Source: an uncultured Candidatus Saccharibacteria bacterium (GTDB lineage: Bacteria > Patescibacteriota > Minisyncoccia > Phycocordibacterales > XYD1-FULL-46-19). From it: 64,000 nt of DNA. Positions 6,309-29,327 of the stretch are shown piece after piece. The position numbers and the translations under genes are program-made. The stretch is from the NCBI GenBank assembly GCA_964355855.1, contig CAYHFD010000001.1, positions 9,921 through 73,920 of the forward strand, written 5' to 3'. The notes below the pieces were generated by a model, which searched no databases, had not been told where the DNA came from, and was given only the letters and a program-made list of their open reading frames with translations. The number at the start of each line of letters is the position of its first letter. Position 1 is the stretch's first letter.

Positions 6309-7478
6309 ATGGCCAAAATTCAACCGGAAATCGAAGCATTTGCCCGCATTAAAGTTATTGGGGTTGGTGGTTCTGGTACCAATGCAGTCAACCACATGGT
6401 CAACGCCAAGGTACGTGGTGTCGAATTTGTCGCTATGAACACTGACGCCCAGCATCTGCACGCTTCGGTTTCTCAAAAAAAGGTTCACATTGGTAAAAAC
6501 TTAACTCGTGGTCTGGGTACTGGTATGGATCCAGAAATCGGTCGTAAGGCCGCCGAAGAAAGTTTAGAGGATATTCAAAATGTCATCAAGGGGGCCGATA
6601 TGGTGTTTGTTTCTGGTGGTCTTGGAGGTGGTACTGGCACCGGTGCCATGCCCGTCATTGCTCGCACCGCTAAAGAACAGGGTGCATTAACAGTGGCCGT
6701 AGTCACCAAACCTTTTATTTTTGAGGGTAAACATCGCATGGCCCTAGCTGAACGCGGTATGTTGGAACTGCAAAAAGAGGTTGACGCAGTAATCGTTATC
6801 CCTAACGACCGCCTTTTAGGCATAATTTCCAAAGACACCACTGCCGAGCACGCTTTTGCGATGTGTGATGAAATTTTGCGCCAAGCCGTCGAGGGTATTT
6901 CGAATATTATAACCATTCCGGGTATTATTAATGTTGATTTCGCCGACATTCGAGCTATTATGCAAAATGCTGGCTCCGCCCTTATGGGTATTGGCAATGC
7001 TTCTGGAGAAAACCGCGCTGTCGAGGCCGCTCGCAATGCCATCAACTCGCCTCTCTTAGACCTATCGGTGGACGGTGCCAAAGGTGTACTGTTTACCATT
7101 GCCGGTGGTTCTGATATGACAATGTTTGAAATTCAAGAAGCCGCCAAAGTTATTACCGAATCGATTGATCCTGACGCCAAAGTTATTTTTGGTGCTATTC
7201 ATGACGACAAACTCAAAAAATCAGAGATTAGAGTTACGGTTATTGCTTGCGGTTTTCCCGAATCACAGAAAAAGAAAGGTGGCTTGTTTGGTTTTGATTC
7301 AAATAACAAAGAGACCGAAGTCGCCAAGGAACGTTCAAATGGTGTTCCACCCTCAACAACCCTGCGCCAGACACCTCCTCGTACCCAGGTAATTGAGCCC
7401 GAGAATCAATCTGATGGCGACGACGAAGACGATTGGTCATCTATCCCCGCTTTTTTAAGACGAGGAAATAAAAAATAG
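6309..7478 (+). CDS. ftsZ: cell division GTPase FtsZ
   Basis: IKVIGVGGSGTNAVNHM and GGGTGTG tubulin signature, acidic/basic C-terminal tail. Confidence 0.95.
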   Translation: MAKIQPEIEAFARIKVIGVGGSGTNAVNHMVNAKVRGVEFVAMNTDAQHLHASVSQKKVHIGKNLTRGLGTGMDPEIGRKAAEESLEDIQNVIKGADMVFVSGGLGGGTGTGAMPVIARTAKEQGALTVAVVTKPFIFEGKHRMALAERGMLELQKEVDAVIVIPNDRLLGIISKDTTAEHAFAMCDEILRQAVEGISNIITIPGIINVDFADIRAIMQNAGSALMGIGNASGENRAVEAARNAINSPLLDLSVDGAKGVLFTIAGGSDMTMFEIQEAAKVITESIDPDAKVIFGAIHDDKLKKSEIRVTVIACGFPESQKKKGGLFGFDSNNKETEVAKERSNGVPPSTTLRQTPPRTQVIEPENQSDGDDEDDWSSIPAFLRRGNKK

Positions 7479-25026: not shown

Positions 25027-25391
25027 TGCTTGGGGGCGGGTTCGAACCGCCGACCCTTCGCTCTTCCAGAGCGTTTGGACTATATCATCATCCGTTCTGC
25101 TAATAAGCAGAGTTAGGAGGCAGGCGCTTCCCCTCAACTACGCTCGGGGTAAACCCTAAGCTAATCAAGAGTACTCCCTTTCGGGATAGTCTCTACACCT
25201 TCCGAGCACCACTTTTGAATTCTAGAATATTCTAAAAACCAAAAGTGGTGCTCGGCTTGGCTCGGGATTGTCCAAAAAATTAATCTTGGGTGTCCCCCGA
25301 ATTCACCTACTTTTTCGATCCACTTTACAATAGAAAGGCCCGAAGTTTTTTAGGGTCCAGGCGAATGCTCTACCAACTGAGCTACCCAAGC
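25027..25391 (-). tRNA. tRNA-Phe (inferred anticodon GAA) interrupted by a ~282-nt group-I-like intron in the anticodon loop
   Basis: 5' exon 25359-25391: GCTTGGGTAGCTCAGTTGGTAGAGCATTCGCCT; 3' exon 25027-25076: GAAGAGCGAAGGGTCGGCGGTTCGAACCCGCCCCCAAGCA; halves form perfect acceptor (GCTTGGG/CCCAAGC), anticodon (TTCGC/GCGAA) and T stems. Confidence 0.75.
25077..25358 (-). ncRNA. group I intron (self-splicing ribozyme candidate) within tRNA-Phe
   Basis: 5' exon ends in U, intron ends in G; contains GAGACTATCCCGAAAGGGAGTACTC (P7/GAAA-tetraloop-like) and GATGATATAGTCC (P7') reminiscent of the Tetrahymena/cyanobacterial cores. Confidence 0.65.
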
Positions 25392-26624: not shown

Positions 26625-27386
26625 CTAGAGACAAAGAACTGATGAAAAATCTTGATGGCCACGACCAGGCTGACATCGTTGGGTAGTTATTGGGGTTTCT
26701 AAAACCCAAGCTTTATAGCCATAATCGTAATGCGCAGGCGCAACCTTTCTCGATGCGCTAGAGGAATCGTCTCGAAGTCCTTCGTATGTAGCTGTAACAT
26801 ATATAACACCTCCTGTATTACTTACGGAGACCAAAACTTCGGAACAGCTGTCCGGTGTGCATCCTCCCCATGTAGCTTTAACTAATGCAAGCGCCTCACT
26901 ATTTGAAAGGGTAAGTGGAACAGCGGTGATTGTGAAAGTGGAATCACTTACATCTTCAACAAAGCCTCCTCTAACTGGACGAATAAAAATCTTATATTCA
27001 CCCGTCTGGAGATTGGAAGAGATAGTCCACTTATAAAGACCAGAGTTCCGGACATTCAAAGCTACATAACCAGCTCCTTGCCCTGAACCTTCTGATCCTT
27101 CAACAAGTCCAATGTCAACATTACTTTTTATTGAGTTTGATAACCACTTAATGTCATATGTCTTGCCACCTTGATATTTCTCTCCTCCATTTGGCGAGAG
27201 AACGGTGATTGAAGGTTTAGAATTAGAAGACAGAGGAGTGATGTTGGAAGTTGGTGCCGGCTCTTGTGTGACTGGTCCAGATTTTTTAACAAAAACAAAA
27301 TATCCCACTGTACCAACGAGAATAGCAACAATTACTACTATCAAAACAATATTTACAAATCCTTTTTGATTCATATAATAATTCAT
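26625..27386 (-). CDS. secreted/surface protein with N-terminal anchor, hypothetical
   Basis: N-terminal TM, Pro/Ser/Thr linker, beta-rich body. Confidence 0.45.
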   Translation of the reverse strand: MNYYMNQKGFVNIVLIVVIVAILVGTVGYFVFVKKSGPVTQEPAPTSNITPLSSNSKPSITVLSPNGGEKYQGGKTYDIKWLSNSIKSNVDIGLVEGSEGSGQGAGYVALNVRNSGLYKWTISSNLQTGEYKIFIRPVRGGFVEDVSDSTFTITAVPLTLSNSEALALVKATWGGCTPDSCSEVLVSVSNTGGVIYVTATYEGLRDDSSSASRKVAPAHYDYGYKAWVLETPITTQRCQPGRGHQDFSSVLCL

Positions 27387-27479
27387 AAATTATTTTTCAA
27401 CTTTATAATTAAAAACTTCTTCCTCAAAATTAAATACTAGGCGAGCTTAAGTAATATAACTCCGTTTTTTATCATACCA

Positions 27480-27702
27480 TGATTTTCTGGCTGGTACCCC
27501 AGGCTCCTGGGAAACCCTGCTCCTCCGCTAAAGCTAGCGGCACGCGGGCGGTTTTCCCAATCCTTCCCCGCCTGCCATCGGCTGCGCCATCAGGCAATGG
27601 CGGGCAGGCTCCACGGGAGACCAGGTGTTCTCCTCTAAGCCGTTCGGCACGAGCTAGGCCGACCCCACTCCCTGCCGGGGGCACAACTCGTTCCCCTCGT
27701 TG
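27480..27702 (-). ncRNA. GC-rich structured element R (homolog of 17880-18113), immediately 3' of tRNA-Arg
   Basis: Shares ordered sequence blocks with element G; helix CGGGAGACC-AGGT-GTTCTCC covaries with CGGGAAAAC-AGGT-GTTTTCCCG of G; 14-bp inverted repeat GCCGGGGGCACAAC/GTTGTGCCCCCGGC includes tRNA 3' end. Confidence 0.4.
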
Positions 27703-27774
27703 TGCCCCCGGCAAGAATCGAACTTACATCAGCTCGTTAGGAGTGAGCCGTTCTATCCATTGAACTACGGGGGC
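27703..27774 (-). tRNA. tRNA-Arg (anticodon CCT)
   Basis: GCCCCCGTAGTTCAATGGATAGAACGGCTCACTCCTAACGAGCTGATGTAAGTTCGATTCTTGCCGGGGGCA; one A-C mismatch at base of anticodon stem. Confidence 0.75.
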
Positions 27775-27823
27775 AAAGTAAAAATGAGCTCACGCTCATT
27801 TTTGCATAAATTTATAACTTAGG

Positions 27824-28084
27824 CTATAAGCCAAGCTGAGATTTTATTCTATCCTCATCAAAACCAATGGTCATTTCCGCTGGCCCTGAGGGATTTGAAG
27901 GGTCGCTAATAAAAATTACCGGCACGCCCATCTGTCCGCTCTTATCAATCATTTCTTTCGCTTTGGCCCGATCGGCTACCACATCAATATCCTCGAAAGC
28001 CACATTATTGGCCTTAAAAAAATCCTTGGCCATATGACAGAAGTGGCAGGTGGAAGTGCTGTAAATGACAACTTTTTTATTCAT
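27824..28084 (-). CDS. glutaredoxin-like protein (NrdH/Grx fold)
   Basis: VVIYSTSTCHFCHMAKDFF CxxC active site, GVPVIFI. Confidence 0.75.
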   Translation of the reverse strand: MNKKVVIYSTSTCHFCHMAKDFFKANNVAFEDIDVVADRAKAKEMIDKSGQMGVPVIFISDPSNPSGPAEMTIGFDEDRIKSQLGL

Positions 28085-28111
28085 AAAAATTGAAAACTAA
28101 GGGTAATTGAC

Positions 28112-28408
28112 CTATTGTATCACACGCTCTAGATAGTCGGAAATATCATCTGTCAAAGCAGTTTTATTACGTTTTTGGTAACCACAGTCCAAACATTTAT
28201 GGGTAATAACAAATTCATCGCCATCTTTCTCCAGTTGCTCTGGTTCCATCAATCCCCCACACTCAGACCCTCGATCACCCGGATTTATATCGACATGTTT
28301 ACTCCACAAACAAAATGGACAATGGTTGGTATAGCCATCACCCTTTACGTCTTTACCACAATAGCCACAAATAAAATCCTCTTTTACTTTTATAAAATTC
28401 TCAGCCAT
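28112..28408 (-). CDS. RNHCP-domain protein
   Basis: YTNHCPFCLWSKH and CLDCGYQ cysteine motifs of the RNHCP family; start taken at MAENF (longer ORF would overlap tRNA-Gly). Confidence 0.65.
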   Translation of the reverse strand: MAENFIKVKEDFICGYCGKDVKGDGYTNHCPFCLWSKHVDINPGDRGSECGGLMEPEQLEKDGDEFVITHKCLDCGYQKRNKTALTDDISDYLERVIQ

Positions 28409-28410
28409 AG

Positions 28411-28481
28411 TGCGGAATACGAGAATCGAACTCGTGTCTATTGCTTGGGAAGCAACCATTTTGCCACTAAACTAATTCCGC
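28411..28481 (-). tRNA. tRNA-Gly (anticodon CCC)
   Basis: GCGGAATTAGTTTAGTGGCAAAATGGTTGCTTCCCAAGCAATAGACACGAGTTCGATTCTCGTATTCCGCA. Confidence 0.85.
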
Positions 28482-28602
28482 AGAAATGATGCCTAACTTG
28501 ATGTGTGGGTGAACTATATCCGCAAAATTACTACTGGATTTTCATAAATTATACTCGCATGACTCGTTAATTTATGGAAGAAGCAACCATTTTGCCACTA
28601 AA

Positions 28603-28910
28603 CCCACACACTAACTTTTGTTTTGGAAAAGTTCTAAAGTTTTACCAATACGCTTGAGAAGCTGATTACGCGCTTGCCCCCTTAATTTTAAACTACTCTC
28701 CCTGTTGCGCGCCTCCTCCTCAATCGAATAAGCTTCATAATACAGTAGTTTAAACGGGCGTCTAGATTTGGTTGAACGAACTTTTCCTAAATTATGTTCT
28801 TCTAGACGTTTCTTTAAATCATTGGTTGAGCCAACATAAAGATCATGGTCTTTTAAACTTCCTAAAATATACAAGAAGAACATAATTTGAAACAAAAGTT
28901 AGTGTGTGGG
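28603..28910 (-). mobile_element. miniature GIY-YIG cassette with perfect 20-bp terminal inverted repeats and 5-bp TAAAC target duplication, inserted in a duplicated tRNA-Gly 5' fragment
   Basis: CCCACACACTAACTTTTGTT at 28603-28622; exact reverse complement at 28891-28910; flanks GAAGAAGCAACCATTTTGCCACTAAAC and TAAACTAATTCCGCA copy the tRNA-Gly 5' region (28449-28481). Confidence 0.7.
28611..28883 (-). CDS. GIY-YIG nuclease family protein (COG2827-like, ~90 aa)
   Basis: YILGSLKDHDLYVGSTNDLKKRLEEHN = GIY..YVG...R..EH catalytic motif; ATG at 28883 (TTG at 28895 alternative). Confidence 0.8.
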   Translation of the reverse strand: MFFLYILGSLKDHDLYVGSTNDLKKRLEEHNLGKVRSTKSRRPFKLLYYEAYSIEEEARNRESSLKLRGQARNQLLKRIGKTLELFQNKS

Positions 28911-28934
28911 TAAACTAATTCCGCAATAAAAATT

Positions 28935-29327
28935 TTAAGAAAAAATATCCGCTAAAGCCTGCCAGCCCGCTGTCCACCAACCACCATTACTTTTATTATT
29001 TATTTTAACACTTGAGGTTGATTCTCCTTCCACGATAGTTATGACTTTCTCGCCTGGTTTTAGGACTGAATAATTTTTTCTTATTTCCTCTTCTTGACCT
29101 CGATCAGTGCGCAACCAGACTACTTTTTTTTGCAATTCGCTTTTTTGGCCCTCAAGTTCGGTCAAGCTACCTTCAGCTTGTTTTTTACCAGCTCCCGCCA
29201 AATGATTTTTAGCATACACGCCCCAAACAGCCTTACTCATAAAAAGCACCAACAGGAGCAAGGCAACAATAGTAACTTTAGAATATATAAACCGTCGCAC
29301 CCGCCGTCGGCCTTGAAAATCTCTCAT
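28935..29327 (-). CDS. FtsB/DivIC-like septum formation initiator (membrane coiled-coil protein)
   Basis: Single N-terminal TM followed by coiled coil (LTELEGQKSELQKKVVWL). Confidence 0.4.
   Translation of the reverse strand: MRDFQGRRRVRRFIYSKVTIVALLLLVLFMSKAVWGVYAKNHLAGAGKKQAEGSLTELEGQKSELQKKVVWLRTDRGQEEEIRKNYSVLKPGEKVITIVEGESTSSVKINNKSNGGWWTAGWQALADIFS

Follow-up and report, generated by a model that had tools for sequence, protein, structure and literature searches.

How does a gene for a small nuclease come to lie inside a copy of a transfer RNA gene, upstream from an intact copy of that same gene? The question is raised by a locus of an uncultured Candidatus Saccharibacteria bacterium, contained in a stretch of 64,000 nucleotides (nt) of contig CAYHFD010000001.1, hereafter the window. 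At this locus, a partial copy of the tRNA-Gly(CCC) gene is split by a 308-bp cassette with inverted repeats at its ends and a single gene, coding for a GIY-YIG nuclease of 90 amino acids (aa). The analysis presented here suggests that the 308-bp unit is likely a copy of a miniature mobile element whose sole gene encodes a single-domain nuclease resembling those of the Ssn family. The signatures of mobility are present in the sequence: inverted ends, short duplications of fixed length, an empty site, non-autonomous derivatives, targets that resemble the element junctions and the replacement of tRNA ends by ends of the element.

A nuclease cassette within a partial tRNA-Gly gene

ARAGORN and Rfam (70 bits) both identify an intact tRNA-Gly(CCC) gene on the minus strand of the window (28410/11-28481), in agreement with an earlier note on this DNA. 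The cassette lies upstream from it, in gene orientation. The features of the region are listed below as they are encountered when reading the minus strand; ORF stands for open reading frame.

28911-28925, minus strand: fragment S1, tRNA-Gly nt -1 to 14 (TGCGGAATTAGTTTA), matching the intact tRNA (28468-28482) at 15/15 positions
28911-28914, no strand assigned: target-site duplication, copy 1; TAAA on the plus strand, TTTA in gene orientation
28603-28910, minus strand: complete 308-bp cassette, in the order inverted repeat, 7-nt spacer, GIY-YIG ORF, inverted repeat
28891-28910, minus strand: 5'-side terminal inverted repeat (gene orientation), CCCACACACTAACTTTTGTT, ending 7 nt ahead of the ATG
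28611-28883, minus strand: gene for the 90-aa single-domain GIY-YIG nuclease; ATG at 28883, stop codon at 28611-28613
28603-28622, minus strand: 3'-side terminal inverted repeat (gene orientation), covering the last three codons (N-K-S) and the TAG stop
28599-28602, no strand assigned: target-site duplication, copy 2; TAAA on the plus strand
28580-28602, minus strand: fragment S2, tRNA-Gly nt 11-33 (TTTAGTGGCAAAATGGTTGCTTC); the copy stops at the first anticodon base
28526-28579, minus strand: X, an AT-rich 54-nt spacer that includes a 12-bp hairpin (28540-28551/28568-28579)
28495-28525, minus strand: degenerate copy of the left junction, consisting of a diverged tRNA 5' end (TTGCGGATATAGTTCA) and the first 15 nt of a diverged arm (CCCACACATCAAGTT)
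28482-28494, minus strand: Y, a 13-nt spacer directly upstream of the intact tRNA
28411-28481, minus strand: intact tRNA-Gly(CCC), supported by ARAGORN, Rfam and the alignment with L094/L095 (see below); its 3' end abuts the start of the RNHCP gene, as in relatives

The ends of the cassette had been described as perfect 20-bp terminal inverted repeats, and re-inspection bears this out: a repeat search pairs the arms at 28602-28623 and 28890-28911 over 22 of 22 positions, that is, the 20 bp plus the flanking A/T. The 20-mer CCCACACACTAACTTTTGTT occurs exactly twice in the 64 kb, even with three mismatches allowed, against none expected (100 shuffles). Neither a second copy of the cassette nor a solo repeat end is found elsewhere in the window. 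Outside the arms, the cassette separates S1 from S2 within a copy of tRNA-Gly(CCC) nt 1-33, both pieces being 100% identical to the intact tRNA. The tRNA 5' fragments previously noticed on the two sides hold up in the alignments (24/24 for the direct repeat between 28580-28603 and 28449-28472, and 15/15 for S1), although their coordinates were off by 1-3 nt. A short repeat is likewise present on both sides, but what had been read as a TAAAC duplication is better described as 4 nt, TAAA, next to symmetrical CCC/GGG termini, with the fifth base shared with the arm. Family data, in which 4 nt is the most frequent length (see below), favour TAAA over TAAAC.

Closer to the intact tRNA, the segment 28495-28525 matches the left junction of the cassette (28896-28926) at 25 of 31 positions (81%), in support of the third, degenerate copy that the earlier note had placed at 28500-28525. 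Its tRNA part, which can also be written GCGGATATAGTTCA, is joined to CCCACACATCAAGTT. The segment is a relic of an earlier or foreign D-loop insertion. An Rfam search over 27300-29000 matched only tRNAs.

An empty site in related genomes

By its nuclease and the neighbouring genes, the window is assigned to a Vogelbacteria-like genome of Patescibacteria from the Hainich aquifer. Four relatives, with LepA proteins 77-83% identical to that of the window, keep the gene order MurJ, LepA, DivIC-like, tRNA-Gly(CCC), RNHCP, glutaredoxin. The search for empty tRNA-Gly sites, which had been recommended, was successful in two genomes, L094 and L095 (L numbers designate the loci compared; LepA 80% identical). 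Here, an uninterrupted tRNA-Gly(CCC) gene with a single TTTA lies between the DivIC-like and RNHCP genes. The two genomes represent species different from that of the window, as opposed to strains of it. In L095 the tRNA gene begins 13 nt past the stop codon of the DivIC-like gene and ends 10 nt ahead of the RNHCP start; the tRNA of L094, also uninterrupted, is almost the same as that of the window (GCGGAATTAGTTTAGTGGTAAAATGG...). The upstream flank of S1 aligns with L094 and L095, in which it abuts the uninterrupted tRNA-Gly(CCC). In these alignments, S1 (28911-28925) occupies the exact start of the ancestral tRNA gene and the intact tRNA ends at its exact end. Since both ends coincide with the ancestral ones, the cassette interrupts the ancestral gene, at position AGTTTA^GTGG within the D-loop. 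Of the two fragments originally taken for partial duplicates, the one at 28911-28925 is therefore no stray copy, as it stands where the ancestral tRNA 5' end was.

The bases in excess at the locus total about 443 and comprise the cassette with its 4-nt duplication plus about 130 nt. The latter portion consists of the two spacers (54 and 13 nt), the relic junction and tRNA positions 1-33 in a second copy. The copy of the tRNA gene that bears the cassette is broken; tRNA function is kept by the intact copy downstream. The 1-33 duplication appears to be an event separate from the cassette's own 4-nt duplication; thus, the notion that the element duplicates tRNA sequence is valid for the 4 nt but not for the larger repeat, which calls for an event of its own. 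The second 1-33 copy being 100% identical to the intact gene, it is either recent or kept identical by gene conversion. The most economical order of events would have the partial duplication take place first, leaving a redundant 5' piece into which the cassette could insert without harm. Three other origins were considered for the 1-33 duplication, spacer X and the relic junction: D-loop insertion followed by repair, insertion with a long duplication, and an integrase-type insertion in the anticodon loop. Each left one feature unexplained.

The nuclease is a single-domain protein resembling Ssn

Ssn proteins (cd10448) are single-domain GIY-YIG nucleases acting on single-stranded DNA (ssDNA), whose genes are flanked by NTS/SRM hairpins; they cut in a sequence-specific manner, binding the hairpin repeat and cleaving just upstream of the hairpin (Chenal et al. 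2025, Nat Commun, PMC11893778). In the 90-aa protein of the cassette, GIY-YIG (PF01541) is the sole Pfam family above the curated cut-off (56.3 bits versus 22.6, E 4.1e-15, residues 6-75) and no extra domain is present, as expected from the earlier claim that the element carries only a GIY-YIG nuclease of about 90 aa. The full catalytic set of the superfamily (two Tyr, Arg, His and a metal-binding Glu) is found. Residues Y5, Y16, G18, R26, H30, N31 and E62 are invariant in 14 close relatives; in a wider set (n = 23), Y5, Y16, G18, R26, H30 and E62 remain so and N31 nearly so. The spacing of Y5/Y16/R26/H30/E62 corresponds to that of Y6/Y17/R27/H31/E75 in I-TevI.

The protein collection holds 78 close homologues, from Patescibacteria wherever the source names the organism, and members of the family range from 81 to 107 aa. 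Comparison by hhalign with a profile of SRM-flanked, Azospirillum-type proteins of the Ssn kind returned a probability of 99.0% (E 2.2e-18), over residues 1-67 only. The match to UPF0213 was weaker (96.3%, against 98.3-99% for the Ssn-type profile). A sequence search of the PDB gave UPF0213/SLX1-type proteins as the nearest solved structures (1zg2, E 8.5e-8; 1ywl, E 3.2e-6) and returned no solved Ssn; in NCBIfam nothing exceeded the cut-off, the only match being a weak one to a group I intron endonuclease model. Searching plasmids with tblastn produced four weak matches, whose only use was to supply an SRM-flanked control, an Azospirillum plasmid locus. This locus (with 4 SRMs) and NTS were both found as positive controls in a search for the published SRM motif, HGTCWYN(0-2)YYVSBRHN(0-5)WNVSBRGN(0-2)RNCYNB, which had no match in the 64-kb window and none in the flanking 500 bp of 92 loci. 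Thus, the window cassette is not a textbook Ssn locus. No close relatives of the nuclease were found among IMG/VR viral contigs, which makes a phage vector unlikely.

Within the cassette lies a 15-nt perfect inverted repeat (28789-28803/28874-28888) through which the start-codon region, AAATTATGTTCTTCT, pairs with the EEHN codons about 80 nt downstream. Pairing that includes the ATG and spans at least 9 nt recurs in 27 of 77 homologous loci, and the leader co-varies, with CGTT/AACG in L024 and L025 versus AATT/AATT. The repeat may form a hairpin that sequesters the start codon.

A family of arm-bracketed elements in Patescibacteria

Scanning one genome per species yielded 539 relatives of the nuclease, and 80 of these loci were examined. 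With the outermost C/G run taken as boundary, the 80 loci, together with L001 and L007, contain 70 elements. Forty-four of them carry the ORF and nearly all of these measure 283-320 bp. The remaining 26 are ORF-less: they are mostly 24-168 bp long, include hairpin-sized solo copies of 24-29 nt, and two of them are degraded copies of about 285 bp. The direct repeats flanking the 70 elements are most often 4 nt long (31 elements), with 5 nt in 3 elements and 6 nt in another 3. An independent test gave a concordant result. A repeat score of at least 14 was obtained in 53 of about 80 loci, and in 27 of these 53 a direct repeat of at least 4 nt abuts the arms; permuting flanks among loci gave an expectation of 2.6 +/- 1.5, with a maximum of 10 in 2000 trials.

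Most genes of the family are bracketed by near-perfect inverted repeats of 14-26 bp with (A)CCCCCACACC, ATCCGCACACTAAC or CCCGCACACTAA as outer motif, the conserved part being CC(C/G)CACAC overall. Watson-Crick pairing between the two arms amounts to 73-100% at positions 1-20, falls to 48% at position 21 and to 16-27% at positions 22-24; positions 13-21 are unbiased in this respect, since they were not used for defining the elements. The arms are complementary over 20-21 bp despite differing in sequence: there are 34 distinct 20-nt arms among the 44 ORF-bearing elements, and several pair types occur at most positions. Non-Watson-Crick positions are not enriched for G-T, leaving a stem at the RNA level unsupported. 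Throughout the family the right arm overlaps the stop codon of the nuclease gene, and the left arm mostly lies within about 30 nt of the start codon. Arm type tracks the protein clade, CCCGCACACTAA going with the 90-aa clade and CCCCCACACC with the 84-88-aa clades.

Elements 85-89% identical to each other are found in unrelated flanks, each with a different duplication. The search for further copies that the earlier note had called for was negative in the rest of the window but uncovered this family, including a 123-bp miniature from the same (Hainich) aquifer with an arm one mismatch away from that of the window (L103). In L098 (1210-1601), three ORF-less miniatures of 125 nt stand in tandem at GGATTTA^C, separated by single TTTA sequences; the same is noted for L113 and L115. 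Targets tend to resemble the junctions of the elements (GG-N4-CC; TTTA, TTAT, CCTA): the duplication is often preceded by GG and followed by CC, examples being GGATTTA^CC and TTAT^CCACA. Larger elements combining these ends with another ORF were looked for in about 120 loci and in the window, with a negative result.

Some further observations concern insertion sites and layout. Insertions recur at a DnaA-box-like sequence, TTATCCACA (or the complement), which is cut as TTAT^CCACA (L051, L065, L066, L087; also L070, L079, L083), and the element's own end, TTAT followed by CCCCCACAC, resembles it. In L098, the insertion falls on the codons for G-F-T in a sequence coding for an N-terminus like that of type IV pilins; a database protein, P0062, consists of an N-terminal methylation motif fused with GIY-YIG. 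In a clade of 84-aa proteins (L044, L045, L085, L088, L036, L038, L068), the nuclease gene has no bracketing arms and a 70-140-bp miniature, inserted at the conserved site TTTA^CCA(A/C)GCAA, lies 3' of the gene. Such a layout comes nearer to the gene-plus-hairpin arrangement of Ssn loci.

Element ends replace tRNA ends

In the clade closest to the window nuclease (63-79% protein identity: L007, L008, L013-L017, L019, L020), all nine cassettes are located 19-21 nt downstream of a tRNA-Gly gene. This gene is intact, on the same strand, and has anticodon GCC, TCC or CCC. Most metagenome matches show the same spacing. With slashes marking junctions, the canonical layout reads ...CCTA/CCCGCACACTAAATTTCGTTT-ATG...TAG-TGTGCGGG/CCTA/CCCGCACA or, reduced to the arm ends, CCTA/CCCGCACAC..GTGTGCGGG/CCTA/CCCGCACA. 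At its start, the left arm (end CCCGCAC) has the 3' acceptor strand of the tRNA itself, together with the discriminator base, in place of the original. The 4-nt duplication (CCTA, CCTG or TCCA) recurs after the right arm; next comes the acceptor strand again, displaced and, in L008, L016 and L020, in decay. Such a layout is what a 4-nt-duplicating insertion between T stem and acceptor strand is expected to produce, provided that the element end substitutes for the displaced strand. A clade associated with tRNA-His is organized likewise (arm CACCCAYAC, duplication TAGG; L046, L075). The mirror-image situation, in which the 5' end is restored, is seen in L007, where a 136-bp miniature (GCGGGCATA/CCCACAC...GTGTGCGGG/CATAGTT) has a right arm that provides tRNA nt 1-5 while a full cassette occupies the 3' end of the same tRNA. 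L056 (tRNA-Ser) and L089 (tRNA-Gly) provide further cases of 5'-end restoration.

By these comparisons, the usual tRNA target of the family is the 3' end of tRNA-Gly, the D-loop insertion of the window being a non-restoring variant. The 5'-side arm of the window cassette is homologous to the 3' acceptor strand plus trailer of tRNA-Gly in the canonical clade, CCCGCACACTAAATTTCGTTT. The acceptor stem of the window tRNA-Gly(CCC), like that of L094, is GCGGAAT/ATTCCGC versus GCGGGTA/TACCCGC in close relatives (compared: L093, L095, L096). As this stem has no CCCGCA end, the element end cannot replace the acceptor strand of the window tRNA. The unusual stem may reflect an escape from targeting or be a coincidence. 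The D-loop site is not unique to the window cassette: L072 has a 24-nt solo palindrome at the same site of a tRNA-Trp 5' fragment, with TTTA duplicated and an intact tRNA-Trp downstream, and the relic junction of the window (TTCA/CCCACACA) represents a third insertion at that position. Together with the co-varying arms, the 4-nt duplications, the ORF-less miniatures and the empty site, these repeated tRNA insertions uphold the initial description of the locus as a minimal, transposon-like GIY-YIG unit that targets tRNA.

Proposed mechanism and competing explanations

On this reading, the element inserted at AGTTTA^GTGG, in the D-loop of the tRNA-Gly(CCC) gene that stands between those for DivIC-like and RNHCP, and TTTA was duplicated. 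The choice of tRNA genes might be understood from the likeness of tRNA-Gly acceptor stems (GCGGG...CCCGCA) to the paired repeat ends; in single-stranded form, a tRNA gene would offer a stem similar to the one that the two arms can make. In the closest clade, insertion takes place 4 nt within the acceptor strand, for which the repeat end then stands in; the tRNA thereby stays intact and the element occupies a strongly transcribed, safe site. The mobilising enzyme is presumably the resident nuclease, because no ORF-bearing element has any other gene, the right arm contains the stop codon of this gene, the type of arm follows the clade of the protein and no larger element with these ends turned up. 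By analogy with Ssn, the nuclease probably reads the two-arm stem, or a tRNA acceptor stem, in ssDNA and cleaves at its base. The duplication would arise when cuts made in the target with a 4-nt stagger are repaired and ligated by the host. Expression probably occurs by read-through from the host tRNA promoter, which in the window would lie upstream of the 15-nt fragment.

A number of points weigh against interpreting the cassette as a mobile element of this kind. The duplication of tRNA positions 1-33, the relic junction and the 54-nt spacer are not accounted for by a 4-nt duplication. No duplication is seen in 18 of the 70 elements, and a subgroup with ATCCGCAC shows at most 'AT'. The window contains a single copy and no near-identical copies were found at two sites of one genome; recent activity therefore lacks support. 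Moreover, orthologous filled sites 90-92% identical (L034/L074, L040/L041) indicate long vertical persistence, through speciation. On the protein side, the C-terminal 23 residues of the nuclease do not align with Ssn-type proteins and, the published SRM motif being absent here, transferring the ssDNA mechanism from Ssn amounts to an extrapolation. The enzymology proposed for the family is read from sequence. Finally, GIY-YIG nucleases are hydrolytic and we know of no strand-transfer activity in them, so integration must rely on host functions.

This last point, applied to a nuclease of 90 aa, lends some weight to a model that we consider unlikely, namely that the inverted repeats are part of a transposon system with its transposase gene located elsewhere and that the GIY-YIG gene is cargo (e.g., an addiction or defence nuclease). 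The ORF-less miniatures go in the same direction, as they indicate that the ends can move without a resident gene. A passenger, however, would hardly be the same single gene in the same orientation in all 44 ORF-bearing elements, with the right arm over its stop codon and the left arm mostly within about 30 nt of its start codon. Nor does the model account for arm sequence and protein clade changing together, or for the lack of any larger element with these ends and another ORF in about 120 loci or the window.

The strict tie of the closest clade to tRNA-Gly 3' ends brings to mind a free-standing GIY-YIG homing gene, spread between tRNA genes by double-strand-break repair/gene conversion, with the repeats as by-products of acceptor-stem symmetry. 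A precedent is T4 SegB, a GIY-YIG homing enzyme in a tRNA cluster. The direct repeat of the tRNA 3' end could have served as microhomology, and in L014 and L020 the repeat end co-varies with the local tRNA acceptor sequence. Yet most members of the family are not near a tRNA and still have 20-bp arms and 4-nt duplications at unrelated sites. The nuclease has no DNA-binding domain, miniatures and tandem arrays exist, and the window copy sits in a D-loop, with no flanking homology to the canonical site. Homing thus appears improbable as the source of the cassettes.

We attach just as little likelihood to a domesticated host nuclease, co-transcribed with tRNA-Gly, whose repeat would act in RNA (processing, stability or translational control), local repeats being incidental. 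The constant spacing of 19-21 nt after tRNA-Gly and its vertical persistence would be natural in such a gene, as would the second conserved pairing, proposed to sequester the start codon, in 27 of 77 loci; left unexplained are the 4-nt duplications, the ORF-less copies, the empty site and the variety of genomic contexts, and non-Watson-Crick arm positions show no enrichment for G-T, unlike RNA stems. As for an assembly artefact or a chimera at the repeat, three Logan contigs do stop exactly at the tRNA 3' end, but the idea is effectively refuted by six contigs from independent Hainich groundwater samples, produced with different assemblers, that are identical through the whole region.

A mobile element with an Ssn-like nuclease as its only product remains our preferred interpretation. 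More tentatively, the cassettes could well represent an unclassified type of autonomous prokaryotic DNA transposon. Its sole protein would be a GIY-YIG nuclease of about 90 aa, and no autonomous mobile element known would be smaller than its roughly 300 bp. Cutting would be guided by the structure of the stem at its own ends, tRNA acceptor stems would act as look-alike landing sites with survival of the host tRNA, and collapsed derivatives of 24-140 bp would give rise to NTS/REP-like hairpin repeats in other bacteria. The data are indicative of a transposon with GIY-YIG as its only protein, for which insertion sequence (IS) classifications have no class, and of a new use of tRNA genes by a selfish element: its end also serves as acceptor strand, at the 5' or the 3' side of the gene. 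The family also suggests a route by which REP- or NTS-like hairpin repeats arise. To the questions of the biological role of Ssn-type nucleases and of the origin of their flanking repeats, this locus and family contribute genomic signatures of mobility (target duplications, empty site, miniatures, arrays). The 34 distinct arms of the 44 ORF-bearing elements constitute cognate nuclease/end pairs for enzymology and for ssDNA tools, and the findings are relevant to the annotation of Patescibacteria genes now labelled just 'GIY-YIG nuclease family protein'. Literature searches returned no description of a bacterial GIY-YIG element with target duplications. The earlier remark that inverted repeats together with a duplication have rarely been pointed out calls for a qualification: an IS-like layout had already been noted for Ssn (PMC11893778), although with no target duplications or tRNA links.

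Other possible elements at tRNA genes

Two more tRNA genes of the window show unusual features. Directly after tRNA-Arg(CCT) (27703-27774), a stretch of about 230 nt (27480-27712, minus strand) has 65% GC versus 43% for the window. It starts with a 14-bp hairpin formed by the tRNA 3' acceptor strand, GCCGGGGGCA, and an inverted copy of it. The RNA fold z-score of the stretch is -3.2 and Rfam gives no match. By its appearance, this would be a second type of element joined to the 3' end of a tRNA. GC-rich inserts of about 205 nt are also found in relatives after the 3' ends of tRNA-Gly or tRNA-Arg (L093 5404-5610; L096 5398-5600 and ~6350-6700; L101 ~2100-2235). In these inserts the tRNA 3' end recurs as a direct repeat and the T-arm as an inverted copy, and the core GGAATCGAAnGGCGGAGCGCACGAAGTCG is common to them; they have no sequence similarity to the tRNA-Arg-linked stretch of the window. 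At about 25031-25391 (minus strand) lies a tRNA gene missed by ARAGORN, whose exons, GCTTGGGTAGCTCAGTTGGTAGAGCATTCGCCTG and AAGAGCGAAGGGTCGGCGGTTCGAACCCGCCCCCAAGCA, read as tRNA-Phe(GAA). A group I intron (about 300 nt; Rfam 25058-25361, 54 bits) splits its anticodon.

Comparison with known systems

Among small GIY-YIG proteins, those of the UPF0213/YhbQ/SLX1-like group (1zg2, 1ywl) resemble the cassette nuclease in size and motifs and include the closest solved structures by sequence. They differ by the weaker match, relative to the Ssn-type profile, and no repeat-flanked layout is known for them. GIY-YIG homing endonucleases (I-TevI; T4 Seg proteins, e.g. SegB) share the catalytic domain, a selfish mode of spread and sometimes the neighbourhood of tRNA genes. 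However, they have a C-terminal DNA-binding domain, lack inverted repeats and duplications, and spread to homologous alleles only. The cassette gene was not assigned to this group, as it encodes a 90-aa catalytic domain only and the flanks of family members are mutually unrelated.

Like tRNA-targeting integrative elements, the cassettes insert within a tRNA gene, supply the displaced segment and leave a direct repeat at the far junction. Unlike them, they have no integrase, the replaced segment measures 5-8 nt and is the element's own repeat end, and either the 5' or the 3' acceptor strand is mimicked. Membership was rejected since neither the cassette nor its neighbours encode an integrase, although the canonical clade does repeat the tRNA 3' end. 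Elements of the IS200/IS605 group and REP-associated transposases (RAYT; REP/BIME) are likewise very small, with a single small nuclease gene between palindromic or inverted sequences; recognition of hairpins in ssDNA has been proposed for both and gene-less hairpin repeats proliferate. IS200/IS605 elements use an HUH/Y1 transposase and have neither target duplications nor terminal inverted repeats, whereas the cassette family has a GIY-YIG protein and both of these features. The absence of an HUH protein and the presence of terminal repeats and duplications led us to reject membership in this group.

The likeness to classical IS with terminal inverted repeats and to miniature inverted-repeat transposable elements extends to the terminal repeats, a duplication with a mode of 4 bp, the non-autonomous miniatures and presence or absence at orthologous sites. 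Differences lie in the lack of a DDE, serine or tyrosine transposase, in a size (283-320 bp) far below that of any autonomous IS, and in arms that stay perfectly complementary while diverging between copies. The sole ORF being a GIY-YIG gene, with no recognised transposase class (DDE, HUH, serine, tyrosine), the cassette was not placed among classical IS. The other marks of elements with terminal inverted repeats are all found: terminal repeats, a characteristic duplication, an empty orthologous site, dispersed copies and non-autonomous derivatives.

This leaves the Ssn family. Its authors describe the repeat-gene-repeat layout as identical to that of an insertion sequence and draw the comparison with IS200/IS605 and REP-associated transposases; their paper (PMC11893778) makes no mention of target duplications, tRNA links, Patescibacteria, 70-140-bp miniatures, empty sites or acceptor-stem mimicry. 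Shared with Ssn are the single GIY-YIG domain, a protein length of about 90-97 aa, the conserved catalytic residues, inverted, hairpin-capable repeats on both sides of the gene in an IS-like arrangement, and short, hairpin-sized copies of the repeat. In the Patescibacteria family, the two flanks pair together over 20-21 bp, whereas in Ssn each flank makes a hairpin of its own. On the basis of these comparisons, we treat Ssn as the closest known system and the cassette nuclease as a putative divergent, Ssn-like branch with its own type of repeat.

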